Source of the DNA: an uncultured Alistipes sp.
Lineage (GTDB): Bacteria > Bacillota > Clostridia > Oscillospirales > Ruminococcaceae
Assembly: GCA_964401315.1 (NCBI GenBank)
Contig: CAYNYB010000017.1
Location: 7,596 to 71,595, forward strand
DNA length: 64,000 nt
Direction: 5' to 3'
Shown here: one piece after another, positions 14,379 through 43,290 of the stretch
How positions within the stretch are numbered: the first letter of the stretch is position 1
Layout: each line of letters opens with the position of its first letter
Notes under the pieces: generated by a model
What the model was told of the DNA's origin: nothing
What the model saw: only the letters and a program-made list of their open reading frames with translations
The model's database searches: none
Program-made: the position numbers and the translations under genes

Positions 14379-14386
14379 AATTCTTA

Positions 14387-14543
14387 GGAACTGTCCAGAA
14401 ATAAATTGTGCATTTAGGCGCAGGATCACTTGTTCTGTGCAAGGCGCGCGACCGTAGGAATACTGGCGTATTTCAAGGGAGTGCAACGCTGCACAGGACA
14501 TGCGAGACAAGCATAAATGCATAAGTTATTTCTGGATAGTTCC
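14387..14543. mobile_element. MITE-like element A1 (157 bp), TTA direct repeats
   Basis: TIRs GGAACTGTCCAGAAATAA / TTATTTCTGGATAGTTCC; TTA at 14384-86 and 14544-46; homologous to 35818-35974. Confidence 0.8.
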
Positions 14544-14617
14544 TTAGGTAAATTGCACAAAATTACCATAGAAAAATAATCATATTTCAAAAATAAGCCA
14601 GACTATTCACATAAAAA

Positions 14618-14646
14618 TTGACATATATTTAAATGTATGCTATAAT
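14618..14646 (+). promoter_or_regulatory. Consensus SigA promoter of uppP
   Basis: TTGACA-N17-TATAAT. Confidence 0.8.
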
Positions 14647-14686
14647 AAAATTCATAGAATAACTCGAATAACGAAAGGATAAAAAT

Positions 14687-15565
14687 ATGATCTGGGAATT
14701 TATCAAATCCATAATTCTCGGTATTGTCGAGGGCATTACCGAATGGCTGCCCGTCAGCAGTACGGGACATCTGATACTTGTCAACGAATTTTTGCAGTTG
14801 AATGTCAGCGACGACGCGGAAATCAACGAAGGTTTCATCAATATGTTCAACGTCGTGATACAGCTTGGCGCAATAATGGCTGTAGTGCTGATCTTCTGGA
14901 AAAAACTTTTTCCATTCGGCAAAAAGGATAATCCTCACCCCTGGAAAAAAGAAGGTTTTGGAGCTTGCGTAAAAGCTGACATAATGCAGATGTGGTTCAA
15001 GGTAATAGTCGCCTGCCTGCCTGCCGCCGTAATCGGAGTTCTCTTCGACGACGTTTTTGAAGCGCTTTTCTATCGATCATGGGTAATCGCTATCGCACTT
15101 ATAGTTTTCGGAATCGCATTCATTATCATTGAAAACCGTAATAAAAACAAATCCGCAAAAGTCAACACGATCAACGAACTTACATATCAGGCGGCACTCA
15201 TAATCGGCGGATTCCAGCTAATCGCTGCAATGTTCCCCGGCACATCGCGTTCGGGAGCAACCATACTCGGAGCGTTGCTTATCGGAATTTCCCGAACCGT
15301 CGCGGCTGAATTCACATTTTACCTTGCCGTTCCCGTAATGTTCGGCGCAAGCTTATTGAAGATCGTCAAATACGACGGCGGATTCACTGGTTCGCAGCTC
15401 AGAATTCTCCTTATCGGAATGATCGTTGCATTCATTGTTTCCGTAGTTGTCATCAAATTCCTCATGGACTACATCAAAAAGCATGATTTTAAAGTATTCG
15501 GATGGTACAGAATCATCCTCGGAATACTGGTTCTCATTTACTTCGGAGCAAAAGCGTTTGCATAA
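14687..15565 (+). CDS. uppP: Undecaprenyl-diphosphate phosphatase (BacA)
   Basis: GIVEGITEWLPVSSTGH and PGTSRSGATI motifs; multi-TM. Confidence 0.96.
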   Translation: MIWEFIKSIILGIVEGITEWLPVSSTGHLILVNEFLQLNVSDDAEINEGFINMFNVVIQLGAIMAVVLIFWKKLFPFGKKDNPHPWKKEGFGACVKADIMQMWFKVIVACLPAAVIGVLFDDVFEALFYRSWVIAIALIVFGIAFIIIENRNKNKSAKVNTINELTYQAALIIGGFQLIAAMFPGTSRSGATILGALLIGISRTVAAEFTFYLAVPVMFGASLLKIVKYDGGFTGSQLRILLIGMIVAFIVSVVVIKFLMDYIKKHDFKVFGWYRIILGILVLIYFGAKAFA

Positions 15566-15569
15566 ATTA

Positions 15570-15612
15570 AAAAATCCCGAAAGCGTAATTTCAAAGCGCT
15601 TTCGGGATTTTT
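15570..15612. terminator. Bidirectional intrinsic terminator
   Basis: AAAAATCCCGAAAGCG...CGCTTTCGGGATTTTT between convergent genes. Confidence 0.82.
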
Positions 15613-15695
15613 ATTTAAATTTTGTACTAATCTTTGAAACGTTGATAGCTAAATTTAAGCCGCAAAGCTATCTATTGTTATTTTGAGGATTAGTA

Positions 15696-16862
15696 TTATG
15701 ACTGATAAGCGGAAGTGATTCCAAAATACTCTTCAAGTGTAAGATAAGGATCGCCTGCTGCAATTGCAGCATCTTGAATTCGCTGAGCATTCTCCTTACC
15801 CACATAGCGAATATGCCACGGCTCATATTTATAGCCTGTAACGCTCTGCTTACCCTGCGGATAGCGGATTATAAAGCCGTATTCCACACAATGCTCTTCG
15901 AGCCAGATAGCCTCGGGAGTTCCGATAAATGCGTCGCTGATCTCGTTTACATCTATCGCAAGACCTGTCTGATGCTCGGAATGTCCCGGACGCGCCGAAA
16001 AAGTATCAGCTGTAGCCTGTCCGTTTACGGCAACGTAATTATTGTAGATAGATTCCTGCGTTTCATAAGAGCGAAATCCCGATGAGATGTAAATATTTAA
16101 ACCATCATTGGCAGCTCCGCTCGCAAGTTCCTGAAATGCCGAATAAGTGTCGCTTGTAAGTCCGCCCGGATTATAAGAAGACGGCAAAGCGTAAGTTTTG
16201 TTGGCGATGAGGATTCCGTCAATGTATGTTACTCCGTCTACTTGCTGAACGCCTTCAGATTTTTTAACAGTAACATTAACTTCAGCGCCAAGCGACGGAT
16301 TATCAGCCGACGTCACCTTGATAACGCACGTACCCTCGCCAACACCGGTAATATTTCCGAAGGAATCAACGGTAGCAACAGCGGTATTCGAACTTGTCCA
16401 GACTTCTTTGATATTTTCCGAAACAACGGGATACTGCTTAGTCTGACCAACGCTTATCTCGGCTGAATAATAGCTGAGTGTAATGCCGCTTACTGTTGCA
16501 GAGCCGCCTGACGGAGTGGTTGCACCTCCATTTGCAGTCGGCGCTTTCGTGGTCGGAGTATTAGGATTCACCTTTGAATTATTTGCAGCCGAAGTAATTC
16601 CGGTACGCGTAACAGCCACAAATCCCGCTCCTGTAGTTGTTGTACCCGCTGCATCTGTCACGTCTTCCGCAGAAGAAGTTGTAATATCGGAAGTTTGAAC
16701 GTCGTTTTCATTATCTGTAGTATTTTCAACAATACTGCTCGAAATGCTGAGTTCCGATGATTCGTTTTGAGTAGCAGGAACTTCGTTGCCGCATGACGCC
16801 ATACCCATAAGGCAGACTAATGAAGCGATAAACGCCGTAATACGTGTAAATTTTCTATTCAT
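15696..16862 (-). CDS. Lipoprotein D,D-carboxypeptidase (VanY/M15B) with Ser/Thr linker and Ig-like domain
   Basis: Lipobox MASC; WTSSNTAVATV Ig-like domain; SGFRS, SARPGHSEHQTGLAID and EPWH motifs. Confidence 0.9.
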   Translation of the reverse strand: MNRKFTRITAFIASLVCLMGMASCGNEVPATQNESSELSISSSIVENTTDNENDVQTSDITTSSAEDVTDAAGTTTTGAGFVAVTRTGITSAANNSKVNPNTPTTKAPTANGGATTPSGGSATVSGITLSYYSAEISVGQTKQYPVVSENIKEVWTSSNTAVATVDSFGNITGVGEGTCVIKVTSADNPSLGAEVNVTVKKSEGVQQVDGVTYIDGILIANKTYALPSSYNPGGLTSDTYSAFQELASGAANDGLNIYISSGFRSYETQESIYNNYVAVNGQATADTFSARPGHSEHQTGLAIDVNEISDAFIGTPEAIWLEEHCVEYGFIIRYPQGKQSVTGYKYEPWHIRYVGKENAQRIQDAAIAAGDPYLTLEEYFGITSAYQS

Positions 16863-17004
16863 TTCGTCATCTCCCAAGCAGCGTTTATTTCCAAGCTGCA
16901 ATTTTAAATTTTCTTAACACACCTTATTATATCACACTATTTCCCAAATGTAAAGCTTTTTTTGAAAAAAGTCAGTAGCAGACAAGAAGATAGAGACGGT
17001 ATAA

Positions 17005-17724
17005 TTACATGGGCAGCTTACTACAATTATATCTGTCAACACTGTCAAAAATATTTTCTTCAGATCGTTGACGCATAGAATAAACATCATCGCAGCCAAA
17101 TATTATATGATCAACCATCGTAATCCCAAGCAATTTAAGTGCATTTTTGATTTTCAGCGTTGAAGATATATCGGCTGTCGACGGAGTACATACGCCCATA
17201 GGGTGATTATGTGCGATAAACACATATGAAGCTTCGTTTTTCATTGCAAAATTGACAATTTCTCTACATGATGACGCAACTTGAGATACTGAACCGCTGT
17301 TTAAGATTTTAGAGTCAATAATTTTGAAATTCCTGGAAACCGCCGTCACAACGATTATTTCAACGTGTTCTGATTTAAGATAAGCGGAGAAATATTTTTC
17401 AGCATTCTCAACAGTATCAAGCAGCAACATCTGGCATTTCTCCAGTTCGCAAATTCGCTTTAGCTGCGGAATAAGCGTCAGAAGAAGTGCGCTCTGCATA
17501 TTGATGCCACAGTCTTTCACAAGAAACCTCGAATCGGAATCCATAGCCATTTGAGGAGTTCCGTAAATCTCAGTAAGCTTCGCTACAGCATTTTCAATAT
17601 TTTTACTTTGCTCGGAATATGAAAGGATAAATGTAAATTTCTCAGTATCTGTAAGAGAATCAAACCCTTGCTCCAAATATTTTTTTCTTACAATATCAGA
17701 TATTTTTTGAATTTTATTGGTCAT
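17005..17724 (-). CDS. RadC-like JAB-domain protein (JAB metal motif intact)
   Basis: FIAHNHPMGVCTPSTADI matches HNHPxGxxxPSxxD; divergent N-terminus. Confidence 0.75.
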   Translation of the reverse strand: MTNKIQKISDIVRKKYLEQGFDSLTDTEKFTFILSYSEQSKNIENAVAKLTEIYGTPQMAMDSDSRFLVKDCGINMQSALLLTLIPQLKRICELEKCQMLLLDTVENAEKYFSAYLKSEHVEIIVVTAVSRNFKIIDSKILNSGSVSQVASSCREIVNFAMKNEASYVFIAHNHPMGVCTPSTADISSTLKIKNALKLLGITMVDHIIFGCDDVYSMRQRSEENIFDSVDRYNCSKLPM

Positions 17725-17774
17725 GGTATTTTATAGCATTTTAAAATTTTATTTATAGGTTCTTATAGCATTTG

Positions 17775-18446
17775 TTAAAATGAAAAAGCTCCGCACTTCC
17801 TTAGTGAAATAGTATTTCTGCCAACGCAAACTATGGAATCTATAAGACGAATTCCGATACACGTGAATTTTTCAGCAAACAAACGTGTAATAGCAAAATC
17901 GCTTTTATCCGGCAAAAAACTGTCCGGAGCATGATTTATGCCAAGACTGATTTTATTGCAGTCGGATTTTAAAAGAATTTCAGCAATACGGCGCAATTCA
18001 TTTTCATCTGTAAGAGCTATTGATTTTGAAAAGCTTGTTTGACCGCGTATTTCGTAGTTTCCGGCAATATTCAGCAGCAGACAAAGATCAGATGTAGCGT
18101 CGTTAAAATAATCGAGAAAATATTCGGATAATTCGCTTTCAGATAATGTTATAGGGCTGAGCGTACTGCTTGAACACATATCAGAAACAAGTTTCAAGAA
18201 CATTGCAGACGATTTTCCCATGCCGTCTACAGCGGCGATTTCCTCCTCTGAAGCTGCAAATATTCCATTGAAGCTTTTGAATTTGTTTATAAGATTATGA
18301 GCGATCTCATTCGTATTTCTTCGCGGGATAACGTAATACAGCAGATATTCCAGCAGTTCGTGATTACAGAATGAATCCGCGCCTTGTTTCAGAAGGCGAT
18401 TTCTCATTCTTTCCCTATGACCATAGTGAAGGGAATCATTATCCAT
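17775..18446 (-). CDS. RadC-like protein (RadC N-terminus intact, JAB motif degenerate)
   Basis: HYGHRERMRNR...HELLEYLLYYVIPRRNTNEIAH and HhH VDGMGKSSA; C-terminal GINHAPDSFLPDKSD lacks the first His; SD GGGAGG. Confidence 0.75.
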   Translation of the reverse strand: MDNDSLHYGHRERMRNRLLKQGADSFCNHELLEYLLYYVIPRRNTNEIAHNLINKFKSFNGIFAASEEEIAAVDGMGKSSAMFLKLVSDMCSSSTLSPITLSESELSEYFLDYFNDATSDLCLLLNIAGNYEIRGQTSFSKSIALTDENELRRIAEILLKSDCNKISLGINHAPDSFLPDKSDFAITRLFAEKFTCIGIRLIDSIVCVGRNTISLRKCGAFSF

Positions 18447-18533
18447 ATTCAGCCTCCCAATAATATTTATTACTATTATTATATCACATATTTCTAAAAA
18501 TTTCAAGTCGCAATTCAAATTTTTTTGAGAAAA

Positions 18534-18775
18534 TATACTCGACTTTATTCTAAAACACGCCAAAGATTTCTATTTGGATAATTGGTAGATTTTAGAACTT
18601 GTGTTCATAGGATTTGTGCATGGATTTTCGAGCATAATTTTACCGAAAGCAAGGCGAAAAAACGAAATCATACTGCCGTATGGTGAACTTTTTCAACGCA
18701 GCTATCAGTAAAATTTGCCGAAAAGACACGTTCAATAGCCTATGAACACAAGTTCTTAGAATAGAGTCGAGTATA
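18534..18775. mobile_element. Family-C element (internally shortened) interrupted by MITE B1
   Basis: Left TATACTCGACTTTATTCTAAAA; removing B1 and one TTA restores right TTTTAGAATAGAGTCGAGTATA (21/22 inverted match). Confidence 0.75.
18595..18755. mobile_element. MITE-like element B1 (161 bp), TTA direct repeats
   Basis: TIRs GAACTTGTGTTCATAGG / CCTATGAACACAAGTTC; TTA at 18592-94 and 18756-58; close copy at 41550-41710 (inverted). Confidence 0.85.
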
Positions 18776-18807
18776 TAAACAAGGCTGCCTATCGGCAGCC
18801 CCGCAAT

Positions 18808-20226
18808 TCAAGAATTTATAAGTTCGCTAAAAGTTTCAATGTAAACGCCTGCCGAAACCGACCAACTGTTATCGCATTTCATAGCACGCTTAACAAGAGA
18901 CTGCCACTTCTGAGGATCGTCGTAATCTCTTTTCGCACGGCGAACAGCATCAAGCATATCGTCGGCATTAAAAGTTTTAAATGAATATCCATTACCGTTC
19001 ACGCCGCCGTTATCGCGCACTGTATCACGTAATCCGCCTGTTTCGCGAACTATAGGCGCAGTTCCATAACGCATAGCTATCATCTGAGCAAGACCGCAAG
19101 GTTCACTCTGACTCGGCATGAGGAACATATCCGAACCAGCATATATCCTGTGAGCAAGCTCGGGAACAAATCCCGTTATCACCGAAACTTTATCAGGGTA
19201 TCTCCGCGACATCTCGATAAAGAAATCCTCATAGATCTTTTCGCCGCTTCCAAGCACGGCAACCTTGATTCCGCTGTTTATAATTTCTTCGAATACACAG
19301 CGAATAAGATCAATACCTTTATGCTTGACAAACCGCGTAACTATACCCAAAAGCGGTTCTCCGCCGTCCGCAAAACCAAGTTCGCTCAAAAGTTCCGACT
19401 TGCATTTCGCCTTACCCGACATATCGCTTTCGGAAAAATGCCAGGCGATATACGGGTCTTTCTCGGGATCGTAGAGATCGGTGTCAATACCGTTGAGAAT
19501 TCCATTTAATTTATACTGTTTATCTGCAAGAATCCGATCGAGACCGCAGGCATACCACGGATCGAGAATTTCCAGAGCATACGAGGGCGAAACGGTTATT
19601 ATCCTGTCAGCCGTCTCAATCGCGCCTTTAAGCATATTTATATAGCCGTCATATTCGAGAATTCCCGAATTATAGGCAGGAATCCCCATCAGCTCATTAA
19701 GAACTTCCTTGCCGTATCTTCCCTGATATTCGATATTATGAATAGTCATTGCGATCTTCAGCTTATCGTAACCTTCAAGATATCTGTAATAAACATGGAA
19801 ATAAACGGGGATAAGCGCCGTCTGCCAATCATTGCAGCTTATAATATCCGGCTTGAAATCGATAAATTTCAGCATTTCGAGAACAGCCCTGCCAAAAAAT
19901 ACAAACCTCTCGCAGTCGTCGTAAAATCCATAAAGACCGTCTCTGTTATAATAATATTCATTATCTATAAAATAATATGTAACATTATTTTTTTCCGCCG
20001 TATAAATTCCGCAGTACTGCTTACGCCATGAAACATCGACCGTGAGATTCGCGATAAACTCCATTTCCTCACGCAGTTTCGGATCGATAGCCTTATAAAG
20101 CGGAATTACGACCGCGCAATTATGTCCCTTTTCGCTTATAGCTTTCGGCAAAGAACCCACTACGTCGGCAAGACCGCCGGAGGCTGCGTAAGGAACAGCC
20201 TCGCTGGCAGCAAAAAGTATATTCAT
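18808..20226 (-). CDS. glgA: Glycogen synthase
   Basis: SGGLADVVGSLP, NDWQT and PSQSEPCGLAQMIAMRYG motifs. Confidence 0.96.
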   Translation of the reverse strand: MNILFAASEAVPYAASGGLADVVGSLPKAISEKGHNCAVVIPLYKAIDPKLREEMEFIANLTVDVSWRKQYCGIYTAEKNNVTYYFIDNEYYYNRDGLYGFYDDCERFVFFGRAVLEMLKFIDFKPDIISCNDWQTALIPVYFHVYYRYLEGYDKLKIAMTIHNIEYQGRYGKEVLNELMGIPAYNSGILEYDGYINMLKGAIETADRIITVSPSYALEILDPWYACGLDRILADKQYKLNGILNGIDTDLYDPEKDPYIAWHFSESDMSGKAKCKSELLSELGFADGGEPLLGIVTRFVKHKGIDLIRCVFEEIINSGIKVAVLGSGEKIYEDFFIEMSRRYPDKVSVITGFVPELAHRIYAGSDMFLMPSQSEPCGLAQMIAMRYGTAPIVRETGGLRDTVRDNGGVNGNGYSFKTFNADDMLDAVRRAKRDYDDPQKWQSLVKRAMKCDNSWSVSAGVYIETFSELINS

Positions 20227-20241
20227 ATGTGCATCTATCCT

Positions 20242-21366
20242 CTATATTTTGCCGTTTTTGTTGATATAGAGCGGATAAGTCTCTGAACCCGTCAAAGATT
20301 TTTCATCGCTGATCTCAACATTTTTATCTGTGATAACGGAAGAGATGTTGCAGCCGCTTCCGATCTTCGTACCCTGCATGATAACGGAATCCTTTACAAC
20401 GGTATCCTTTCCGATCTTAACGCCGCGGAAAATAATCGAATTTTCAACAGTACCTTCGATAACGCAGCCATCAGCAATAAGCGAATTCTTTATATTTGAT
20501 TCCAGACCGTATTTCGCTGGACCGTTATCTCCGACTTTAGTATACACGGGCATATCTATCTTGAATAACGCGTTTCTCTTTTCGGCATCAAGAAGCATTT
20601 TATTAGCTGCAAAATAATTCTCAACGCTGTCTATGCGTACAAAGAAATCCTTATGCTCGTAGCCCATTATCTTATACTCGCTGTTTTTATTCTGAAGAAT
20701 TTCTCTTGTAAAGCTGTAGAGGTTTCTGCTTGCGGCATCGTCAACCACCTGACGTAGAAAATCCTTGCTGATTATCATCATTTCAAGCCACTGATTGCAT
20801 TCTCCCGAAATTTTCGGAGCAACAAGAACATCGCTTACGGTATTATCCTCGTTGAACTGAAGAACAGTAGTACCCGCATTCTTCTCGCTGTCATAATAAC
20901 CCTTGCTGTATATGAGAGTAATATCAGCCTCAGTCTCCATATGCTGACGGAGAACGGGGTTAAAATCAATAGTTGAAACAACATCGCAGTTTGAAAGTAT
21001 CACATACTGCGCCTTTGAATGCTCAACAAAACTCCAGACATTATTGAGGGCGTCCAGTCTGCCCTTGTAAATTCCGCCGGTCTGGCTGTACGGCGGAAGA
21101 AGATGAAGACCGCCCTTTTTACGGGCAAGATCCCAGTCTCTTCCCGAACCGAGATGATCCAGTAAAGAGCCATAATTCGACTTTGTAATAACGCCGACTT
21201 CGGAAACGCCGGAATTAACGAAATTGGATAGTGGGAAATCGATAAGTCTGTATCTGCCGCCGAAAGGAATAGAACCCATAGTTCTCTGCTTCGTAAGCTC
21301 GCTTACATAAGAATCATGCATACTTGCAAAAATCAGACCCAAAACATTATAATTAACACTGCTCAT
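20242..21366 (-). CDS. glgD: Glucose-1-phosphate adenylyltransferase, GlgD subunit
   Basis: IPFGGRYRLIDF with degenerate N-terminal GG motif; follows glgC. Confidence 0.93.
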   Translation of the reverse strand: MSSVNYNVLGLIFASMHDSYVSELTKQRTMGSIPFGGRYRLIDFPLSNFVNSGVSEVGVITKSNYGSLLDHLGSGRDWDLARKKGGLHLLPPYSQTGGIYKGRLDALNNVWSFVEHSKAQYVILSNCDVVSTIDFNPVLRQHMETEADITLIYSKGYYDSEKNAGTTVLQFNEDNTVSDVLVAPKISGECNQWLEMMIISKDFLRQVVDDAASRNLYSFTREILQNKNSEYKIMGYEHKDFFVRIDSVENYFAANKMLLDAEKRNALFKIDMPVYTKVGDNGPAKYGLESNIKNSLIADGCVIEGTVENSIIFRGVKIGKDTVVKDSVIMQGTKIGSGCNISSVITDKNVEISDEKSLTGSETYPLYINKNGKI

Positions 21367-21380
21367 TGTGATACCTCCGC

Positions 21381-22607
21381 TCAGATATTTTCGCCGATGA
21401 TCTGCTTTGGATCAACGGATTTGCATTCCGATACTGTTACGTTATGTCCCACTACCGCAATACCCCAATCGTCTCTGTTTTCAACCATTTCGGGGCTTTT
21501 TCCGATATGAGCGCCGCTTTCTATAACGCAGTCGCTGCCTACAATGGCGTATTCAACAACAGCGCCCGACTTGATAACCGTACCGGGCATAATTATACTG
21601 TAATTTACAGTCGCGCCCTCTTCAACAGTAACGCCTGCAAAAAGAACTGAGAAATCCACAGAACCGTCAACGGAACTTCCCTCGGCGATCATGGAATTTT
21701 CAACATGAGCATTCTCGCCCATATACTGCGGCGGCATATAGCTGCTTCTGGAGTATATCTTCCAGCTCTTGTCATAAAGATCGAGAGGCACACTGGGACT
21801 GAGGAGATCCATATTTGCTTCCCAAAGCGAATCGAGAGTACCGACGTCTTTCCAATAGCCCTCGAATTCATAAGCAAAAAGACGCTGCTTATCGCGGAGC
21901 ATGGAAGTGATGATATCTTTTCCGAAATCCTTCGACCAGCTTTCGCCGCGCTCGCGCTTTGCATTGGCATCATTTTCATTTTCAATAAGGTACTTTTCCA
22001 GCTTTTTCCAACTGAAAACATATATACCCATAGAAGCGAGCGTTGATTTAGGCTCCTTGGGCTTCTCGACGAAATCAACTACCTTGTTGTTTTCGTCGCA
22101 TATCATAATTCCAAAACGTGAAGCTTCGGCAAGAGGAACATCGATAACGGAAATTGTGCAGTCGGCATCGTTGGCGATATGGAAGTCGACCATTTTCGAG
22201 TAATCCATTTTATAGATGTGATCTCCGCCGAGTACAACAACGTAATCCGGATCGTAACGCTTGATGAAATTCATATTCTGGTAGATCGCGTTTGCAGTTC
22301 CCTCGTACCATGAAGCGCCTGCCTGAGATTCATAAGGCGGAAGAACGTGAACTCCGCCGTTCATTTTATCGAGATCCCACGGCTGACCGTTGCCGATGTA
22401 TTCGTTAAGGACGAGCGGCTGATACTGAGTAAGAACGCCTACGGTGTCGATACCTGAATTTGTGCAGTTTGAGAGAGGGAAATCAATAAGTCTGTATTTT
22501 CCGCCGTATGGAACAGCAGGTTTAGCCACGTTTTTTGTAAGAGCGTACAGTCTGCTTCCCTGACCGCCTGCAAGGAGCATCGCTACAACTTTTTTCTTGG
22601 TGTACAT
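21381..22607 (-). CDS. glgC: Glucose-1-phosphate adenylyltransferase, GlgC subunit
   Basis: [32 protein letters not shown] and YWKDVGT. Confidence 0.96.
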
Positions 22608-22715
22608 AAATATTCCTCCTGATATTTATATTAATAGATATATGTTTGAATTAGGGGAACATGGCGTATCTTTGGAATTTCTCCAAAGATCGCACATTTT
22701 CCCAATAATTTATCA

Positions 22716-24710: not shown

Positions 24711-24971
24711 TAAAACAGCCCCCTTTGCCGTAATACCGCGCGGCTGCATAAAATCATGGCGCAGTATCACTTATAGCAGTATTACCTATAGTTATTTTAC
24801 CAGAATATGCAAAAATATTCAAGCTTTTTTGCAAAAATGCACAAAAATTCAGACAATACCATAAATATTAGTTGTAATTTTTGTGCATTTTACCATAATA
24901 CAAGCTATAACTTTACGATCTATTTGTACACACAAACATAATGAATCCGGTTTCGTTGCATAAATTAAAAA

Positions 24972-27149: not shown

Positions 27150-27400
27150 ATCTACCACCTCGGAATAAATTATAGCACAGATACGGCGCATATTTTGTCG
27201 GAATAATAACATGATTTTTATATATAGCAATATAGTTATAATTTTCATTTCAATCGATGCAGAATCAAATCTCAGGCGCCTGTTTTGCGTTCGTTTGAAC
27301 TTATTTTGTGCGCAAACGTACTGTTTGTGAGTTCCTGCAAACATATTCTATTTTATCTGGTGTTATAGTGCAGAATCATATGTATGCAAATTTGCCCATA

Positions 27401-28992: not shown

Positions 28993-29000
28993 ACTTAACC

Positions 29001-29887: not shown

Positions 29888-29903
29888 TAACTGCAGAGAT
29901 TCG

Positions 29904-30730: not shown

Positions 30731-30878
30731 GTCCGCACCTCCTTCATATTAATTCATATGCAAATTTACAATAAATATTACAATGACAGTATTGACTTTT
30801 TCCAAAAATTGTGATAAAATCATGATGAATAGTTATATCAGATAAAGAAATAAAATTTTACCTTTAAGGGTGATATTT

Positions 30879-33194: not shown

Positions 33195-33318
33195 CCCCGT
33201 ATGATAGTCTGAGATACTGAACAGGCTTTGATAAATGGTGACGCTGGATTTTTGCCTTGACATATTTTATGAATTATGGTAAAATTATTAAAATGAATTT
33301 TGAACTGGAGGAGTACTT

Positions 33319-34395: not shown

Positions 34396-34396
34396 T

Positions 34397-35770
34397 ATGG
34401 CAAAATCAAAACTTGTTTATGAATGCAGCGCCTGCGGATACGAAAGCTCTAAATGGAATGGAAAATGTCCCTCATGCGGCGCTTGGAACACATTTGAGGA
34501 AGCGATCAGCGAACCTGCACCCTCATCTTCCTCATCTTACGCTTCAAGAGGAATACTCGATCTCTCCGACAGCATACTTGAACTGGAAGATATAGGCTAT
34601 GACAGCGACGTGCGCTACGATACGGGAATAGGCGAGCTTAACCGCGTTCTCGGCGGCGGACTTGTAAAAGGTTCTCTCGTACTTCTCGGCGGCGAACCGG
34701 GAATCGGAAAAAGTACGATACTGCTTCAAATTTGTCAATATCTCGGCGAGGAGCATTCCATACTTTATGTTTCGGGGGAAGAATCGGCAAGACAGATAAA
34801 ACTCCGCGCACAGCGTCTCGGCGTTGATACCGAAAATCTATATCTGCTGACTTCCACCGACGCAGAGGCAGTTGCGGAAACGATAGCCTCGGCATCGCCC
34901 GATATTGCGATCATAGATTCTATCCAGACCATGAATATAAGCCGCATCACATCAAGTCCCGGAAGTCTTACTCAGGTACGCGAATGCTCTAATCTGTTCA
35001 TGCACACCGCAAAACGTCAGGAAATTCCGATAATTCTCGTCGGTCACGTCAATAAAGACGGCGCAATAGCAGGTCCGAAAGTCATGGAGCATATAGTTGA
35101 CGCCGTACTTTATTTCGAAGGCGAGCGTCATCAGAGTTATCGCCTGCTACGCGCGGTCAAAAACAGATTCGGATCTACAAATGAAATCGGCGTTTTTGAA
35201 ATGCTTGACAAGGGGCTTGCAGAGGTTGAAAATCCGTCCCAAATGCTTCTTTCGGGCAGACCGCATAATGTTTCGGGAACGTGCGTTGCCTGCGTTATGG
35301 AGGGAACACGTCCTATTCTTGCCGAGGTACAGTCTCTTGCCTCAAAAACAAGCTACGCAGCTCCGCGCAGAATGGCGACGGGATTTGATTTCAACAGGCT
35401 AAATATTCTCATAGCCGTGCTTGAAAAGCGTTTGGGAATATATATGGGTTCTCTCGACGTTTATCTCAATATCATCGGCGGATTTCGTCTTGATGAACCA
35501 GCCGCCGATCTTCCCGTGGCAATGGCTTTGTATTCGGGTATCATGGACAAGCCGATCGACGAGATGCTAATCTCATTCGGAGAAGTCGGACTGGGCGGTG
35601 AAATTCGCTCCGTATCGCATTTGTCACAGCGCATTAAAGAAGCCGAACGCATGAGGTTCAGAAAAGTCGTGATCCCCAAACAATCGGCTTCATCGATAAA
35701 TTTCGCAGACTATAAAAATATTGAAATAATCCCTGTTTCAACGCTGAAACAGGCTTTTAGTGCGATATAA
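34397..35770 (+). CDS. radA: DNA repair protein RadA/Sms
   Basis: Zn finger CSACG...CPSC; Walker A GGEPGIGKST; KNRFG; Lon-like C-terminus. Confidence 0.97.
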   Translation: MAKSKLVYECSACGYESSKWNGKCPSCGAWNTFEEAISEPAPSSSSSYASRGILDLSDSILELEDIGYDSDVRYDTGIGELNRVLGGGLVKGSLVLLGGEPGIGKSTILLQICQYLGEEHSILYVSGEESARQIKLRAQRLGVDTENLYLLTSTDAEAVAETIASASPDIAIIDSIQTMNISRITSSPGSLTQVRECSNLFMHTAKRQEIPIILVGHVNKDGAIAGPKVMEHIVDAVLYFEGERHQSYRLLRAVKNRFGSTNEIGVFEMLDKGLAEVENPSQMLLSGRPHNVSGTCVACVMEGTRPILAEVQSLASKTSYAAPRRMATGFDFNRLNILIAVLEKRLGIYMGSLDVYLNIIGGFRLDEPAADLPVAMALYSGIMDKPIDEMLISFGEVGLGGEIRSVSHLSQRIKEAERMRFRKVVIPKQSASSINFADYKNIEIIPVSTLKQAFSAI

Positions 35771-35775
35771 TCATG

Positions 35776-35810
35776 AAAACGGCAGCAGAATTTTTTCGCT
35801 GCCGTTTTTT
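35776..35810 (+). terminator. Terminator of radA
   Basis: AAAACGGCAGC...GCTGCCGTTTTTT. Confidence 0.82.
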
Positions 35811-35817
35811 ATACTAA

Positions 35818-35974
35818 GGAATTGTCACGAAATAAGTTGTGCGTTTAGACGCAAAATCGTTTGTTCTGTGCAAGGCACACAACCGCAGGAATAATGACGT
35901 ATTTCAAGGTTGTATAACGCGGTGTAGTACAAACGAGACAAGCGTAAATGTGCAGGTTATTTCGTGACAGTTCC
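35818..35974. mobile_element. MITE-like element A2 (157 bp), TAA direct repeats
   Basis: TIRs GGAATTGTCACGAAATAA / TTATTTCGTGACAGTTCC; TAA at 35815-17 and 35975-77; collinear with A1. Confidence 0.8.
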
Positions 35975-35979
35975 TAATG

Positions 35980-36009
35980 AAAAAAGAGCGTTCGGAAACG
36001 CTCTCTTTT
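35980..36009 (-). terminator. Terminator of the pectate lyase gene
   Basis: GAGCGTT-cgga-AACGCTC hairpin flanked by A/T runs. Confidence 0.7.
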
Positions 36010-36038
36010 CATTATATCATTATATTTAAGGAACGGGC

Positions 36039-39000
36039 TTACTTAATAGGAAGATCTTCAAGCTTGTAAATACCTGCGTCAACCTGCTGAATCGTAAGTG
36101 CATCCTGAGCTGTTACACCGTCTTTGTTTCCGATAACATCGGCGTTGATAAGTCCCTGATCTGTAAGAGAATACTCGTCTTTATTTGTAAGGAACTGGAG
36201 AATCAAAGTTGCGTCTGCGATCTCAACCTTGCCGTCGCAGTTTGCGTCGCCGTAAACGTTTTTGTCTGATGAAGTTGTTGTAGTTCCTGCAGGCTGCTGA
36301 GTTGTAGTTACCGGAGCCGATGAACCGTCTGCATATATCATGTAGAAGAGATTTGCCGTATCAGCCTTAGTAATAGTGTGCGAACCGGACGCAAGGTCTA
36401 CCGTGATGATTCCGTTGACCGCCTTATATTTCGTATCGTCGATCTTTACTGTAGTGTCAGCCTCAGCGAATACCAGAGTAAGCTTTCCTGCCGACGCAGC
36501 GTTGAATGTGATATTTGTTGCGGATTCCATTTTCAGGCATTGTGTGAGAGTTTTGCCATCGTAATTTACCGTACCCTTACTTGTTGAAAGGTTGCCCGTG
36601 ATTTTGTAGAATGTGCTGTCTTTGCCGTTAGCTGTAAAGTCGTGAACATATCCGCCTGAAACCACGGGAGTTGAAGATGTAGTGGTTGTAGTTGTCTGAG
36701 CATTAGAATTTGTTGTTGACTGTGTAGTTACAGGAGGAGTAACTGATGAACCTGTGAAGTGATAGCCCATTGAAACGTATTCGCCCTTGGTTTCAAAATA
36801 ACCGTTTGTATTTACGCTGCCGTCAGCGTTTCTCCATGCTGTGTGGAAATCTGTACCCTGTACAGGAGCTTTAGCTGTTGAAACAAAGTCAGATGTTGCA
36901 GGTCCATCGTATTTAGTACCGATTTTTGCACCGTTTGTTACAGCAGTATCGGAAGCTACTTTATAATAACCGCTGTTATAGTAAACACCGTTATTGTACA
37001 TACCTACATACTTATCATTTGCCGGCTTGCTTACCGAAAGCTTGCTGTCTGAAATGTAAGAAGCTGTATTATAATATGAAATGAGGTTGTCGAAGTCACA
37101 GTTTGTACAGCGGTATACCGAGAAGTTTGGCTTACCGTTTCCGCCGCCGCCGTTGTTGATTGCTGTGGAGTTGGAAATTGAACCGAGCTTCGGGTTGTTG
37201 TTGTCTGTGAATCCACAGTTGAGATTCTCAAACGCAAGGCAGTTATCAACAATATGTGCAGAGCCAATACCTGAACCGCCGAGCTTGAATCCGTTACCGT
37301 CGCAGTCGCCATAGCCCTCGCCGAATTCAGTGAAACCATTTCTGAATGCAACACAGTTCTTGAGTGTTACCACGCCGATAGGACCTGTTTCGGATTTTGC
37401 AAATAAATCCCAGCCGTCATCAGAGTTATTGTATGACATACAGCCGTCAAATACATTGCCCTCACCGCAGGTAAGTTTTGCAGCAAATCCGTCAGCGTTT
37501 TCCATTGTAGCGTCATCGCAGTTATTCTTGGAAGTACAGTTGAGGATCGTATTATATGAAGGCCAGTCAGCAAGAGTTGCCGCGCTTGTGTTGTAGCGTG
37601 AGATCTGGAGACCTGTATCCTGATTGTCGTTGAATACCATCATTTCAATGAGGTTGTTATTACCGGAAAGCAGCATTCCGTTATCGGCAGCCTTTGTGAT
37701 CTCAAATCCGTAGAAGTGCCAGTAATCGCCGTCAAGCGTAACGCCTCTCTTTGAACCGTCAGCAGCGCCCTGTCCTGAGAAATCCCAAACAACCTTTGCG
37801 CCTGGGTATGCGGAAATTGTCTTGTATTTTCCTGCTGAACCGTTGTTGTTTGAATCGATGAGGATCATTTCGCTGAACTTATATGTTCCGTCAAGGAGAT
37901 AGATCGTACCGCCTGCGGGAACAGCCTTGATAGCTGAAAGAACGTCTGTGGGAGCCTGCATTGTCTTACCGTCTCCGCCACCGTTAGGTGAAGCGTAGAT
38001 CACATTTGCGCCTGTAACGGGAGCCGCGGTAGTTACGACAGGGGGATTTGTAGCAGGCGGAGCCGTAGTCTGAGTAGTCTGAACAGGAGCCTGAGTTGTT
38101 GCAGGAGGATTGGAAACATCTTCCTTGAATCCGCTTCCGATAGCAACTATCGAATCTTTGTAAGCTACGAGAGCAGCTTTTAATTCGGCATTTACAGCGT
38201 AGCTTGCATCGTCAACAGCGTTGTTGAACTGCCATTTGAAGTCACCGCCGTCAACACGTCCTGCCTTAGATGTTACAATAGTGGGAACATCTGCCGCAGC
38301 ATCAACATTATAGCTGTAGAAATCACTTGCTGTATCAAAGTTATTGTATGTTGCGCCGCCGTCCTTTGCCTTTACAGATGAAGGAACCTTTTCGTCTCTT
38401 GATGAAGCAACATAAGCGTCAAAGTCTGTATTGTTTTCACTGTATGGTACAAACTTTTCAGCGCCCTCTATAATATTGCCGTATGCCTTGATCATACCGC
38501 CGGTTTCACCGGAAAGTACAAGTCCGCCCTCTGAACCCTGCTTTGAAATAAGCATAGGCTCTTTGCAGTTGCGGAAGTAATTGTTCTCCGCAAAAATGTC
38601 TGAATCTGTAGTAGAACCGATGCCGTACTTTGCATTGCCGTCATAGTAGTTGTTGTAAACATGAACTGTTGCAACTCTTACACGGGGGTGACGCGAATCG
38701 GAGTGATCGTACCAGTTGTGGTGATACGTGATGTAATTTGAAGTATCGCTTGCGTTTGCGCCCTGAAGATTACACTTTCCGTTATCATAGAAATGATTGT
38801 AGGAATGAGTGATATGGTGAGATTTTTTTGTATCGAGAGCGCCGTCGCCCTTTACCTGATCGGCGTCCGAACCCGCATCGCCGTAGAAATAATCGCAGTT
38901 ATGAACCCAGCAATAGGAATCGTCCTGCTGTAGACCGATATTATCGCCCTCGGAACTGTTGCAGTTCATTGTACCGATATTTCTCACTTCAATATCGTTG

Positions 39001-39767
39001 CAGCCTTTGAGAACGATTCCCCAGCCGTTTGCAGTTGCATCGTTTCCGATACCCTCGATCGTCATACCTGCGGAGGTTACGCCGTCAACGTAAAGATCGC
39101 CCTTGGGCATATTGGAAGGATCGCTGATATTTCCGATAAGTCTGATAGAGATCGGGCGTGTTTCCTTGCCTTTCTTGTATGCGGTTATGATTTCCTGAAC
39201 GCCTACACAGTCAACATCGCCCTTACCCTGTGCGTTAAGCTTAACTGTTACTGTATCCTTGTTTTCCTCGGTAACATAAACGACTACGGCATTATCTTTA
39301 AGAGTACCGTCAGCTTTGTAAGCGCCGGGCATATGACCATCCGCGAAAGCATATCCGCTTCTGTCGTGAGCGTAGCATGAAGCCGTTGCCTCGGCAGCCT
39401 TTGAGGAATCTTCCTTGCCGCTGATAATCGGAACGATCTTCATTGTGTGGCTTCCTGCCTTGAGACCTATTGCATCAGCTCTCATATAGCCGCTGTACTG
39501 TCTGATGAGCATTGAATCGATCTGAACGCCGTCAACATAAACGTTGTAGCCTGATGCGCCCGAAACAGACCCCCATGTTGCGTACATTCCCTCTGCATAG
39601 CCTGTGCATGACATAACCTTTACGCTTGCCTCAGCCGCAAAAGCTGCCGTCATGCTTCCTGCAAGAGGAGTAACCGCGCTTATCATAGTTCCCGTTACAG
39701 CCGTAACGCTCATTACAGCCGAAGCTGCAATGGCTGTGATTTTCTTTTTCATCATTGAATTTCTCAT
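36039..39767 (-). CDS. Cellulosomal bifunctional pectate lyase: PL1 - PL9 - CBM77-like - dockerin
   Basis: PL1 motifs WVHNCD, ITYHHNWY, SRHPRVR; PL9 motifs DGFAAKL, DDGWDL, GNGFKLGG; Thr/Pro linkers; CLKMESATNI module recalled as CBM77; C-terminal dockerin. Confidence 0.9.
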   Translation of the reverse strand: MRNSMMKKKITAIAASAVMSVTAVTGTMISAVTPLAGSMTAAFAAEASVKVMSCTGYAEGMYATWGSVSGASGYNVYVDGVQIDSMLIRQYSGYMRADAIGLKAGSHTMKIVPIISGKEDSSKAAEATASCYAHDRSGYAFADGHMPGAYKADGTLKDNAVVVYVTEENKDTVTVKLNAQGKGDVDCVGVQEIITAYKKGKETRPISIRLIGNISDPSNMPKGDLYVDGVTSAGMTIEGIGNDATANGWGIVLKGCNDIEVRNIGTMNCNSSEGDNIGLQQDDSYCWVHNCDYFYGDAGSDADQVKGDGALDTKKSHHITHSYNHFYDNGKCNLQGANASDTSNYITYHHNWYDHSDSRHPRVRVATVHVYNNYYDGNAKYGIGSTTDSDIFAENNYFRNCKEPMLISKQGSEGGLVLSGETGGMIKAYGNIIEGAEKFVPYSENNTDFDAYVASSRDEKVPSSVKAKDGGATYNNFDTASDFYSYNVDAAADVPTIVTSKAGRVDGGDFKWQFNNAVDDASYAVNAELKAALVAYKDSIVAIGSGFKEDVSNPPATTQAPVQTTQTTAPPATNPPVVTTAAPVTGANVIYASPNGGGDGKTMQAPTDVLSAIKAVPAGGTIYLLDGTYKFSEMILIDSNNNGSAGKYKTISAYPGAKVVWDFSGQGAADGSKRGVTLDGDYWHFYGFEITKAADNGMLLSGNNNLIEMMVFNDNQDTGLQISRYNTSAATLADWPSYNTILNCTSKNNCDDATMENADGFAAKLTCGEGNVFDGCMSYNNSDDGWDLFAKSETGPIGVVTLKNCVAFRNGFTEFGEGYGDCDGNGFKLGGSGIGSAHIVDNCLAFENLNCGFTDNNNPKLGSISNSTAINNGGGGNGKPNFSVYRCTNCDFDNLISYYNTASYISDSKLSVSKPANDKYVGMYNNGVYYNSGYYKVASDTAVTNGAKIGTKYDGPATSDFVSTAKAPVQGTDFHTAWRNADGSVNTNGYFETKGEYVSMGYHFTGSSVTPPVTTQSTTNSNAQTTTTTTSSTPVVSGGYVHDFTANGKDSTFYKITGNLSTSKGTVNYDGKTLTQCLKMESATNITFNAASAGKLTLVFAEADTTVKIDDTKYKAVNGIITVDLASGSHTITKADTANLFYMIYADGSSAPVTTTQQPAGTTTTSSDKNVYGDANCDGKVEIADATLILQFLTNKDEYSLTDQGLINADVIGNKDGVTAQDALTIQQVDAGIYKLEDLPIK

Positions 39768-40177
39768 TTTCTTTCCCTCCATGAGATCTGACGCTGATGC
39801 GTCATTTTCTGCCTTTGCCTAACAGCAGATATTTAATATAATGATATAATTGACAGAGCCAATTATCTGTCCTGTGGTCTTTCCGACCTTGTGATTATAT
39901 TATAAATCATCTTTCCACATTTTTCAATGATATATAATACTGATTAACTGACATATTGTGCTATAATGATTTTACATCAAGTTCAATTAGTCATTCACAG
40001 ATACTCTATTGAATTATTGATCATTATATGATATAATAGAACCGTTCAATAACTTCCAAAACGCTGCCTGACTTGTTTTTTTGCATCATTCAGCATTTTT
40101 CCGGTTATTAAACAGATCTAAAATTCCGGAACTGAGCAAAAAAACTGCTCTTCTCCGCATTATAAAGGGTGAATTAT

Positions 40178-41500
40178 ATGAGTAAATTCAGAACACAACA
40201 TATGACGATCGACTGGCATGATATCATAGACTGCGAAAGTACAGCCGCAGCAGCTGATGCACCTCTAAAGGAAAAAACTTATCTCGTGGGCAGAGTAGGA
40301 CTTCTCATGCTGTCTGTCGGAACAGCGGCATGGCGTGTGCGCGCCTCAATGAATAAGATCGCACGCGCACTGAATATCACCTGCAACGCTGATATCGGGC
40401 TGCTTTCGATCGAATATACCTGCGTCGATAACGGCGAGACCTGCACTAACGCTCTTTCGCTGAAAACGACAGGCGTTAATACTCACAAGCTTTCCTATCT
40501 TGAATATTTCAACGATAATTTCGCCGAAAGAACAGGAAAATATTCAATCGAGCAGTTCAATATGATGCTCGATAAGATAGAGAATCTGCCTGCAAATTAC
40601 AAGGCTATTCGACTCGGATTCGCAGCCGCTCTCGCCTGCTGCGCATTCACATTCCTGCTTGGCGGAGGCCCTGTTGAAATGATAGGAGCATTTCTTGGAG
40701 CAGGCGTCGGAAATTTCGTTCGCAAGAAGCTACTGGAAAATCACATAACTCTTTTCGCGAACGTCGCCGCAGGAGTTGCTTCCGCCTGCTGCACCTACGT
40801 TATTTTTATAAAGCTTGCCGAGTGGTTATTCGACGTTTCGGCAGTCCATCAGGCAGGCTACATATGCTCAATGCTTTTTGTTATTCCGGGATTTCCGCTG
40901 ATAACAGGCGGATTTGATCTCTCAAAACTTGATCTCCGCTCAGGTATTGAACGCGTGACGTATGCGCTGCTTATTATAGGTATCGCAACTCTGACAGGCA
41001 GCGTGACAGCTTCTTTATTCAGCTTCGCGCCCTCCGCATTCGAAGCCGTCGCGATACCTGCACATTTAAAGATTTTGCTGCGCCTTGCAACGAGTTTCTG
41101 CGGAGTTTACGGATTCTCGCTCATGTTCAACAGTCCGCGTAAAATGGCGGCAGCTGCGGGAATCATAGGAATGACAGCCAATACTCTCCGTCTGGGGCTT
41201 GTAGATTTCACGCCTGTCCCTGCTGCTGCGGCTGCATTTATAGGAACGTTCGCAGCAGGTATGCTCGCAACGCTCATAAAACCTGCCGCAGGTTATCCGA
41301 GAATCACACTGACAGTTCCGTCGATAGTAATTATGGTTCCTGGAATGTATATGTACAAGGGAATATTTTTTATTGCGCAAAAAAATCTCGCAGAAGGCGG
41401 AATGTGGCTCTGCGAAGCCGCACTGATAATTGCCGCCCTGCCGCTGGGACTGATCTTCGCCCGTATCGTGACTGATAAAAATTTCCGTAAAAGCAGCTAA
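40178..41500 (+). CDS. ThrE-family threonine/serine exporter (fused two-domain form)
   Basis: GLLMLSVGTAAWRV, IPGFPL and VPSIVIMVPG; multi-TM. Confidence 0.88.
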   Translation: MSKFRTQHMTIDWHDIIDCESTAAAADAPLKEKTYLVGRVGLLMLSVGTAAWRVRASMNKIARALNITCNADIGLLSIEYTCVDNGETCTNALSLKTTGVNTHKLSYLEYFNDNFAERTGKYSIEQFNMMLDKIENLPANYKAIRLGFAAALACCAFTFLLGGGPVEMIGAFLGAGVGNFVRKKLLENHITLFANVAAGVASACCTYVIFIKLAEWLFDVSAVHQAGYICSMLFVIPGFPLITGGFDLSKLDLRSGIERVTYALLIIGIATLTGSVTASLFSFAPSAFEAVAIPAHLKILLRLATSFCGVYGFSLMFNSPRKMAAAAGIIGMTANTLRLGLVDFTPVPAAAAAFIGTFAAGMLATLIKPAAGYPRITLTVPSIVIMVPGMYMYKGIFFIAQKNLAEGGMWLCEAALIIAALPLGLIFARIVTDKNFRKSS

Positions 41501-41504
41501 TCAT

Positions 41505-41542
41505 AAAAAAGCACAGCATTTCAATTTTAACGCTGTGCTTTT
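41505..41542. terminator. Terminator between thrE-like gene and cls
   Basis: AAAAAAGCACAGC...GCTGTGCTTTT. Confidence 0.8.
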
Positions 41543-41549
41543 ATTTTAA

Positions 41550-41710
41550 GAACTTGTGTTCATAGGATATTGCACGCATCTTTTCGGCAAATTTTACCGA
41601 TAGCAGCGTTGAAAAAGCTCACCATACGGCAGTATGCTTTCGCTTTTTCGCCTTGCTCTCGGTAAAATTATACTCGAAAATTCACGCACAAATCCTATGA
41701 ATACAAGTTC
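41550..41710. mobile_element. MITE-like element B2 (161 bp), TAA direct repeats, inserted at the cls stop codon
   Basis: TIRs GAACTTGTGTTCATAGG / CCTATGAATACAAGTTC; TAA at 41547-49 and 41711-13; reverse complement of B1 with scattered substitutions. Confidence 0.85.
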
Positions 41711-43290
41711 TAAAATAACGGTGCAATTAATTTCAGGAATTGACCTACTACTTTATAGTATAATTTCTCCTTTTTAATGCTCTCGCGAGTAACCATACGG
41801 CATTTCGTCAGCGTTTCCTGAAAATCCTCTTCGATTGACTCGATACATTCCGTTTTATACATATAAGTCGCACATTCAAAATGATGATAAAGACTGCGAT
41901 AATCAAGATTTATCGTGCCGACTACCGCTTTTTCATCGTCGCATACGAAAATTTTGGAATGCACGAATCCGGGCGTATATTCGTAAATCTTAACGCCGGC
42001 TCTTATAAGGGACTTGTAATGAGTTTTCGCAAGGGAATACGCAGCCTTTTTATCGGGAATCCCCGGCAGGATTATCCTTACGTCGATACCGCGTTCCGCC
42101 GCGAATTTCAAAGAATTTTCCAGTTCTCCGTCAAGTATCAGATACGGCGTCATTATATGAACGTAATTCGTGGCGCGATTGAGAATATCCATATAAACGT
42201 TTTCGCCGACTTTTTCATCGTCAAGCGGACAATCGGCATATGGCAGAACATATCCGTCGAATTTTCCAAAAGTCTCAACAGGTTCAAGCCATTTATCCCA
42301 CTCAGGCTCTTTTTCGGAAATATTCCACATCTGCAAAAACATAAGCGTAAAACTCCGAACGGCGTCGCCTTTTATCATTACGGCGGCGTCCTTCCAATGC
42401 CCGAAACGTTCCCTGCGGTTTATATACTCGTCCGCGAAATTCACACCGCCGTTAAAGGCTGTTTTTCCGTCGATAACAACGATTTTTCTATGATCGCGGT
42501 AATTGTAATAAGTCGACAGAAACGGCATGATAGGCGAAAAAGCCTTGCATTTTATTCCAAGATTATTCATGCGCGCAGGATAATCATGAGTAAGCGTGGA
42601 CATCTCGCACATTCCGTCGTACATTACCCGGACTTCAACGCCCTGAGCCGCCTTGTCACGCAGAATCTCCAGTATTTTTCCCCACATATAACCCTCGTCC
42701 AGAATAAAATACTCAATGAAAATAAATTTTTCTGCTTTCTGAAGCTCCTCGATAAGTCTTTCGAATTTACTCTCGCCGCTTGGGAAATATTCGGTATAAA
42801 TATTTTCGTATATCGGAAAACAGCCTGTACGATTGAGATAAAAGCATAGATCGTCAATGCCTGAACTACGAACCTCTTTCCGTGCCAGCAATCCCTTATT
42901 ATGCGGAAGTTTCCTTTTAGTTTCCGCAATAAGCTTTGCGACGCGTTTTTTTATCGCAAGATGACCTGCGTCGCTCTGAATAAATCCCAGAAGTATCGTT
43001 CCCGGAATAGGAAATATCATTATGATTATCAGCCACGAAAGTTTCGCCGAGGAATCCATTTTGCAGTTGAAAAGGTAGAATATCATTATTATCATGAAAA
43101 TTTCCAGAAACAGCCGTATCTGCGGAACAAAGTCAAGAAAGAACTGATATATCGAAACAAGAATGAAAATTTGCAGCAGCACAAGCAGAGCGATCATAAA
43201 AATTCTGCTGAATATTAATCTGAGAAGCCCTTTTTTTCGTATTGGAATAAGCCTTAATATTCCGTCGTCCTTAATTTTTTTCTTAAACAT
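41710..43290 (-). CDS. cls: Cardiolipin synthase
   Basis: Two HKD motifs (HRKIVVID, HSKIFVCD); N-terminal TMs. Confidence 0.95.
   Translation of the reverse strand: MFKKKIKDDGILRLIPIRKKGLLRLIFSRIFMIALLVLLQIFILVSIYQFFLDFVPQIRLFLEIFMIIMIFYLFNCKMDSSAKLSWLIIIMIFPIPGTILLGFIQSDAGHLAIKKRVAKLIAETKRKLPHNKGLLARKEVRSSGIDDLCFYLNRTGCFPIYENIYTEYFPSGESKFERLIEELQKAEKFIFIEYFILDEGYMWGKILEILRDKAAQGVEVRVMYDGMCEMSTLTHDYPARMNNLGIKCKAFSPIMPFLSTYYNYRDHRKIVVIDGKTAFNGGVNFADEYINRRERFGHWKDAAVMIKGDAVRSFTLMFLQMWNISEKEPEWDKWLEPVETFGKFDGYVLPYADCPLDDEKVGENVYMDILNRATNYVHIMTPYLILDGELENSLKFAAERGIDVRIILPGIPDKKAAYSLAKTHYKSLIRAGVKIYEYTPGFVHSKIFVCDDEKAVVGTINLDYRSLYHHFECATYMYKTECIESIEEDFQETLTKCRMVTRESIKKEKLYYKVVGQFLKLIAPLF

Follow-up and report, generated by a model that had tools for sequence, protein, structure and literature searches.

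Palindromic miniature transposable elements with TTA/TAA target duplications and a conserved apical module in a gut clostridial genome

A stretch of 64,000 nucleotides (assembly GCA_964401315.1, contig CAYNYB010000017.1, positions 7,596 to 71,595 of the forward strand), herein referred to as the window, contains four short palindromic elements named A1, A2, B1, and B2. These are genuine, recently active miniature transposable elements with inverted repeats (MITEs), which are polymorphic between strains and duplicate a 3-bp target of the TWA type (TTA or TAA). It is quite likely that they belong to a superfamily of non-autonomous, TWA-duplicating MITEs of gut and rumen Oscillospiraceae and Ruminococcus, with a mover of the IS5/PIF type and a fold selected on one strand. 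The four elements are as follows.

A1: 14387-14543 (157 bp), core on the plus strand at 14439-14489; ends GGAAC...GTTCC; TTA at 14384-14386 and 14544-14546.
A2: 35818-35974 (157 bp), core on the plus strand at 35870-35920; ends GGAAT...GTTCC; TAA at 35815-35817 and 35975-35977.
B1: 18595-18755 (161 bp), core on the plus strand at 18649-18699; ends GAAC...GTTC; TTA at 18592-18594 and 18756-18758.
B2: 41550-41710 (161 bp), core on the minus strand at 41606-41656; ends GAAC...GTTC; TAA at 41547-41549 and 41711-41713.

All four elements share a scaffold with constant spacing, GCAAGGC-N14-ATANTGNCGTAT-N13-AACGC, which lies on the minus strand in B2 and thus in inverted orientation relative to A1, A2, and B1. 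Exactly four matches to this pattern were found in the window even with three mismatches permitted, against 0.00 expected from shuffled sequences. Pairwise identity is 78% for A1 and A2, 91% for B1 and B2, and about 60% between A and B elements. Like other MITEs, the elements are short, bounded by terminal inverted repeats (TIRs, 18-41 nt), and devoid of open reading frames (ORFs); all of them are located between ORFs. Each one folds end to end into a near-perfect single hairpin with a minimum free energy (MFE) of -64 to -82 kcal/mol. Shuffle z-scores, computed for A1 and B2, are -11.95 for A1 (MFE -81.7 kcal/mol) and -11.75 for the reverse complement of B2 (MFE -76.8 kcal/mol). A covariance model of the family found strong copies in the window only at A1 (82 bits), A2 (81.6 bits), B1 (95.5 bits), and B2 (105.9 bits). 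An earlier note on this DNA, made from the letters of the window, had described four fixed-length palindromes with identical TTA or TAA brackets and a common scaffold, and direct reading of the sequence confirmed this description. The inversion of B2, the presence of the core in MITE families with other ends, and the strand asymmetry of the fold were not mentioned there.

The termini of B1 and B2 also contain the pattern GAAC-N4-GTTC (18595-18606, 18744-18755, and 41550-41561), which corresponds to the Gram-positive LexA (Cheo) box. This resemblance is probably coincidental, since most other B copies read GAACTTGTTCTC at this place and have no box.

Empty sites were sought in public gut metagenomes, on contigs that belong to related strains at about 94-97% identity (runs X1, X5, and X7). 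For B1, the empty site is exact in X1, the closest strain: positions 18592-18755 are skipped (164 nt, that is 161+3) and a single TTA remains. For B2, the empty site is exact in X1, X5, and X7, where 41547-41710 are skipped (164 nt, with 3 ambiguous letters) and a single TAA remains. A2 is missing from X1 with a net difference of 160 nt (157+3) and substitutions near the site. A1 is missing from X5 and X7, where 14386-14546 are skipped and the junction reads CTT-TTC-GG rather than CTTAGG. Thus, for each of the four copies, one or more of the related strains examined have either no element or one with an internal deletion. Since strains with 94-97% identity differ in these insertions, the activity must be recent. 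The view of the earlier note, according to which the elements are mobile, MITE-like units that lack autonomy, is supported by the absence of ORFs, by the polymorphic presence and absence between strains, and by orthologous loci that keep a single TTA or TAA (exactly for B1 and B2, in net length for A2).

Core-less derivatives with both arms retained were observed at three loci: A1 in X1, where 14418-14490 including the core are deleted, L112 (2243-2320), and L037 (about 2440-2480). They suggest that palindrome-mediated deletion is a common decay route.

The flanks of copies elsewhere were compared in 48 relatives with both ends present. The 3-nt flanks are identical in 36 of these 48, and the next 3 nt outward, taken as a control, are identical in 1; shuffled pairings of the flanks averaged 16 identical pairs and never exceeded 25. 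TTA/TTA was found 19 times and TAA/TAA 16 times, and the only mixed pair was TTA/TAA (TAA/TTA was found 0 times), so that 35 of the 36 TWA flank pairs are matched. Rarer duplications, TGA, TCA, and TTT, were found on both sides of other copies. Random flanks, which the earlier note had named as evidence that would speak against transposition, are contradicted by these counts. When read on the core strand, TTA and TAA occur in nearly equal numbers (19:16), even inside one subfamily. This even split is as predicted for double-stranded insertion into a quasi-palindromic TWA target and argues against strand-specific transposition of the HUH type.

The distribution of the family beyond the window was analyzed with a core-pattern scan limited to one genome per species. 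More than 109 loci were found, nearly all of them in metagenome-assembled genomes (MAGs) of Oscillospiraceae, Ruminococcus, or 'Clostridiales'. Single MAGs contain at least 10-16 copies with an exact core, many of them at contig ends. In the DNA metagenomes of the related-strain runs, read depth over the elements is 10-30x the depth of their flanks, which suggests tens of copies per genome; both numbers agree with the earlier expectation of many copies genome-wide. A covariance model recovered 22 further copies beyond the search pattern, and these are hence unbiased by it. The core-bearing subfamilies of 157-162 bp differ in their termini, among which are GGAACTGTCC, GAACYTGT, GAGCCTGTTCAC, GAGACTGTTTAG, GGGAAGCTCTG, and GAACCGGTATG. 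A further class that carries the core measures about 280 bp and has the ends AGCTGACGAGAGTCGAAC; it always has TA on both sides and folds as a Y formed by a terminal stem, an additional left branch, and the conserved hairpin. No earlier description of the family was found in the literature and it is absent from Rfam; as far as could be found, these elements represent an undescribed family within a known class, the MITEs.

Several observations concern the Y-shaped and other unusual copies. Non-palindromic copies were considered as candidate TnpB/IscB omega-RNAs, and this idea was rejected: no conserved ORF adjoins the Y-shaped copies of about 280 bp, and the copies in question turned out to be non-autonomous elements of this class. 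The ends of the Y-shaped family (for example, L009 4769-4937 and L046 5159-5446) contain GGGTTCGATTCCC-GTCAGCT and resemble a tRNA T-arm with the 3' strand of the acceptor stem; for this tRNA-like part (GGTTCGAnTC), no tRNA was called by ARAGORN. Identical Y-shaped copies (L009, L015, L029, L046, and L084) were found on contigs labelled Collinsella aerofaciens (Actinobacteria) in one binned assembly, where mis-binned contigs of Oscillospiraceae are more likely than a true Collinsella host. The core is interrupted by a 63-nt insertion in L087 (4151-4375), a second hairpin is nested within the core in L088 (5298-5632), and an unchanged apex is combined with a different basal loop in L096 (1722-1890). 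In the Y-shaped copy L025 (3227-3333), the left branch bears an inverted copy of the apical motif.

The part of the elements kept across families with differing termini and duplication sizes is an apical module. It consists of 5' CAAGGM, a GCA/AA internal loop, a stem capped by C-UGNC-G, and a following RACGNAG. The central modules were aligned without gaps (83 distinct sequences). In this alignment, paired cells make up 90%, compared with 69% for shuffled and about 40% for slid sequences, and changes on both sides were found in 24 of the 32 pairs (29 of 32 in a wider set). In the 22 pattern-independent copies, compensatory changes in the apical stem convert AUAC/GUAU to GUGC/GCAC, GGGC/GCCC, AUGC/GCAU, or AGAC/GUCU, and the unpaired CAAGG(C/A), GCA/AA, C-UGNC-G, and RACGNAG stay constant. 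Such a combination of compensatory changes with conserved loops on one strand is typical of structured RNAs, and here it is confounded by palindromy.

Because covariation is expected of any maintained palindrome, the types of mismatches in the defined stems were counted. G·U mismatches (204) prevail over A·C (16), G·A (146) over C·U (6), and G·G (69) over C·C (6); in the unpaired columns, 49% of the letters are A. The excess is distributed across 19 pair columns and 15 sequence clusters, and a count of cluster majorities over these 15 clusters gives 45 G·U versus 3 A·C (p about 1e-10). The core strand is the more stable one in 76 of 78 elements, with a mean difference of 13 kcal/mol. The covariance model scores the core strand of the window elements at 82-106 bits and the complements of B1 and B2 at 20-23 bits, and the complements of A1 and A2 have no match at E<=10. 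Pairing is thus preserved only on the strand that bears GCAAGGC, which argues that a single-stranded form, RNA or single-stranded DNA (ssDNA), is under constraint.

It appears about as likely as not that selection acts on the element in a folded single-stranded form, most simply an RNA and possibly an ssDNA. Read-through transcription would then yield an RNA of the core strand, which may be bound or processed by a protein of the host or of the transposon and may serve mobility, host tolerance, or transcript processing. More tentatively, the apical hairpin may be a functional single-stranded nucleic acid, most likely RNA, carried as a common payload by MITE families that differ in their ends and in the size of their duplication (3-bp TWA, or TA around the Y-shaped forms).

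The elements would be mobilised in trans by a cut-and-paste DDE transposase, and we lean towards a member of the IS5 / PIF-Harbinger superfamily belonging to the IS1031/IS427 type. This superfamily has a 3-bp TNA/TWA duplication as its hallmark. Within IS5, the duplication measures 3 bp in the IS1031 subgroup and 2-4 bp in the IS427 subgroup (ISfinder/TnPedia). PIF/Harbinger elements are characterized by terminal inverted repeats and a 3-bp duplication (PMC2213677). The duplications found here, with TTA and TAA in the majority and TGA, TCA, and TTT besides, agree with this type. The G(G)A(A/G)C(C/T)TGT termini presumably resemble IS5/PIF ends as well. The IS5/PIF-Harbinger link made in the earlier note is thus plausible in view of the duplication and the termini; an autonomous element with these ends was not recovered in the sequences searched. 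In particular, there is no transposase domain or ORF among the ORFs of the window. A search of the 109 loci for solo or paired termini identified no partner, with no pairs of termini 0.65-3 kb apart and no multi-copy ORF. One metagenome was scanned for the B terminus with 'not-T' codes that exclude MITE interiors, and only a chance tandem repeat and an internally deleted MITE were found. Viral contigs scanned for four termini and the core gave chance matches only, and blastn against plasmids and phages identified no partner. To our knowledge, the transposase of the Correia elements of Neisseria has never been identified either, and by this analogy a missing partner would not be unusual.

A number of results weigh against the interpretation given above. 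For A1 and A2, the empty alleles deviate in some letters from a perfect empty site. None of the sources searched contained an autonomous element with these ends, and for this reason the choice of a transposase family depends on the size and sequence of the duplication and on a presumed similarity of the termini. As to an RNA function, the elements show no bias in orientation relative to genes (17 same, 22 opposite, 15 divergent, and 10 convergent), and no convincing or conserved internal promoter was found in them; a candidate, TTGAAA-N18-TATGMT, opposite to the core strand in the B copies, was rejected as unconserved in other subfamilies. The sole transcript signal is the unstranded depth of multi-copy contigs in one metatranscriptome (640-710 for B2 versus 2-20 for its flanks), and four raw-read RNA runs, which are unrelated transcriptomes, gave 0 reads. 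Covariation by itself is what any maintained palindrome produces. Finally, the mismatches G·T, G·A, and G·G also have the higher stability in DNA, and ssDNA therefore fits the asymmetry equally well.

The same unbiased orientation, the lack of an evident internal promoter, the unstranded transcript signal, and the ability of palindromes to covary without any RNA function also speak for ordinary MITEs that act at the DNA level. In that case, the hairpin would be a by-product of a fold-back origin and concerted arm evolution, the asymmetry would be inherited or mutational, and the core would be bound as duplex DNA by an accessory factor of the transposase or by a nucleoid protein, comparable to the IHF site of Correia elements. 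This explanation is possible, yet we hold it doubtful: the ratios are 13:1 for G·U to A·C and 24:1 for G·A to C·U, with the excess distributed across the pair columns and clusters counted above, and a mutation bias linked to replication or transcription should cancel because both gene orientations occur. Moreover, conserved loop nucleotides beside an apical stem that changes in a compensatory manner are typical of a folded single strand and not of a duplex site. An assignment of the elements to Clostridiales-1, as suggested in the earlier note from a resemblance in fold, or to another catalogued RNA family can practically be dismissed. Clostridiales-1 (RF01699) is an orphan candidate non-coding RNA (ncRNA) of gut Clostridiales and shares its habitat, Clostridiales of the human gut, with the elements (PMC2864571). 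However, cmscan with Rfam 15, in which RF01699 is included, gave no match to it or to any other relevant family, neither for the whole window at gathering thresholds, nor for A1 and B1 at E<=10, nor for seven loci of five subfamilies at E<=1. True matches in the window scan were limited to a tRNA and to an S10 leader without relation to the elements; all others were chance matches to microRNA hairpins, far below threshold.

Two other modes of transposition were compared with the preferred double-stranded insertion at TWA. Single-strand hairpins of the HUH type, such as PATEs of the IS200/IS605 family or REPIN-like units moved by RAYT, are likewise hairpin-shaped mobile units with a strand-specific fold; here too the whole element is a hairpin, and no DDE partner was found. 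In this model, the trinucleotide is a carried target or cleavage site, so that one polarity and mixed flanks are predicted. REPINs and PATEs have subterminal hairpins, lack both a duplication and long perfect TIRs, and insert with a single polarity on the 3' side of a fixed short target, whereas in the elements analyzed here the left and right trinucleotides covary, both polarities are equally frequent, and long perfect TIRs form the ends. Orientation is also unbiased with respect to gene direction, a proxy for replication direction in Firmicutes, and we regard HUH-type movement as very unlikely. MITEs of the IS630/Tc1-mariner type would duplicate TA and include the third base in the element. 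Indeed, the Y-shaped relatives of about 280 bp are always flanked by TA (TA/AGCTGAC...GTCAGCT/TA), and the 164-nt gaps of the empty sites fit 162+2 as well as 161+3. For the class found in the window, however, this model requires two forms of the element, with an extra 5' A or an extra 3' T, and this base would never occur at both ends or at neither, given that TAA/TTA was not seen and TTA/TAA was seen once. Besides, the TGA, TCA, and TTT duplications do not hold a shared TA plus an element base, and an IS630-type origin of the window class is highly improbable.

Among known repeats, the elements are most comparable with Tourist-like PIF/Harbinger MITEs and the IS5 family (IS1031/IS427), with which they share a size of about 160 bp, the absence of ORFs, G(G)...TGT TIRs, a 3-bp TWA/TNA duplication, high copy number, intergenic insertion, and hairpin formation. 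They differ in being end-to-end hairpins of fixed length, in having no autonomous IS5-like partner among the sequences searched, and in the asymmetric, sequence-conserved apical module common to families whose ends differ. The Correia elements (CREE/NEMIS) of Neisseria are repeats bounded by TIRs; they measure about 100-155 bp and have a short A/T duplication, a conserved centre, and co-transcribed hairpins. They occur in another phylum and are unrelated in sequence, and their TA duplication, IHF site, and promoter elements were not seen in the elements described here. ERIC/IRU and BOX/RUP/SPRITE repeats are imperfect palindromes located between genes, with a secondary structure that is probably maintained in the RNA, and RUP is a MITE derived from IS630. 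In contrast to these repeats, which are also unrelated in sequence, the elements of the window show a clear TWA duplication, empty sites, and a much longer hairpin of fixed length.

All four intergenic elements are flanked by ordinary chromosomal genes. A1 lies between a gene for a Crp-like protein (13689-14378) and uppP/bacA (14687-15565), B1 between radC-like and glgA genes, both on the minus strand, and A2 between two convergent genes, radA-like and pectate-lyase/CBM77, in the interval that separates their terminators. B2 is inserted 4 nt past the terminator of thrE, and its other neighbour is a cardiolipin-synthase-like gene on the minus strand (41710-43290). The target of B2 was the TAA stop codon of this gene (41710-41713). 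The stop codon is TAA in the empty allele and TAG in the filled one, where it is formed by the final C of B2 and the TA of the duplication (read for the minus-strand gene), and the length of the ORF is the same in both. The gene content of the window, including dockerin, CBM77, a glycogen operon, an FeFe hydrogenase, spoIIE, and dnaG-rpoD, points to a cellulosome-bearing, Ruminococcus-like member of Oscillospiraceae. A tRNA gene with a long variable arm (12260-12343, minus strand; Rfam, 52.8 bits) is located between the hydrogenase and rubrerythrin genes. An ORF for a CI-like helix-turn-helix repressor (63223-63744, minus strand) is located at the window edge and may mark where a prophage or some other mobile region begins.

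A sister family of hairpins, named Z, is represented in the window by one full copy.

Z copy: 13042-13208 (about 167 bp), minus strand; ends TATATACTCGCC.../...GGAGAGTATACA; apex different, arms B-like; upstream of the Crp-like gene.

With the covariance model, this copy, a distant relative, gives a match at 13071-13179 (minus strand; 19.8 bits, E 0.017). B1 itself sits in the right arm of a short palindromic element with Z ends (18533-18776; Z ends at 18533-18553 and 18756-18776), and the locus between glgA and radC is thus a MITE nested in a MITE. A full Z copy was found at the spot orthologous to the B1 locus in L114 (4773-4937). In X7, the B1 locus has an 832-nt replacement, which was reached through the GlgA cluster and considered as a possible source of a transposase; it contains a sister Z hairpin and a 171-aa membrane-type ORF with no Pfam match, and this candidate was rejected.

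The hosts of these elements, Ruminococcus-like Oscillospiraceae, are important fibre degraders of the gut and rumen, and the elements are abundant and recently active in them. Many copies lie at contig ends, where short-read assemblies are broken by the elements. Between strains, the elements cause insertion and deletion differences beside housekeeping genes, and stop codons can be hit too, as by B2. Their unusual feature is an apical module conserved on one strand only across MITE families whose ends have changed. This module, being absent from Rfam, would add a family for the annotation of gut metagenomes. Given that a selfish element should preserve nothing beyond the needs of its own spread, this module offers a handle on how MITEs are recognized or tolerated and on the protein that moves them. 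If the single-strand interpretation is true, the apical hairpin would be either an ncRNA of a new class, spread by transposons in gut Clostridia, or a structured strand that acts in cis and has to be recognized by the mobilising protein.

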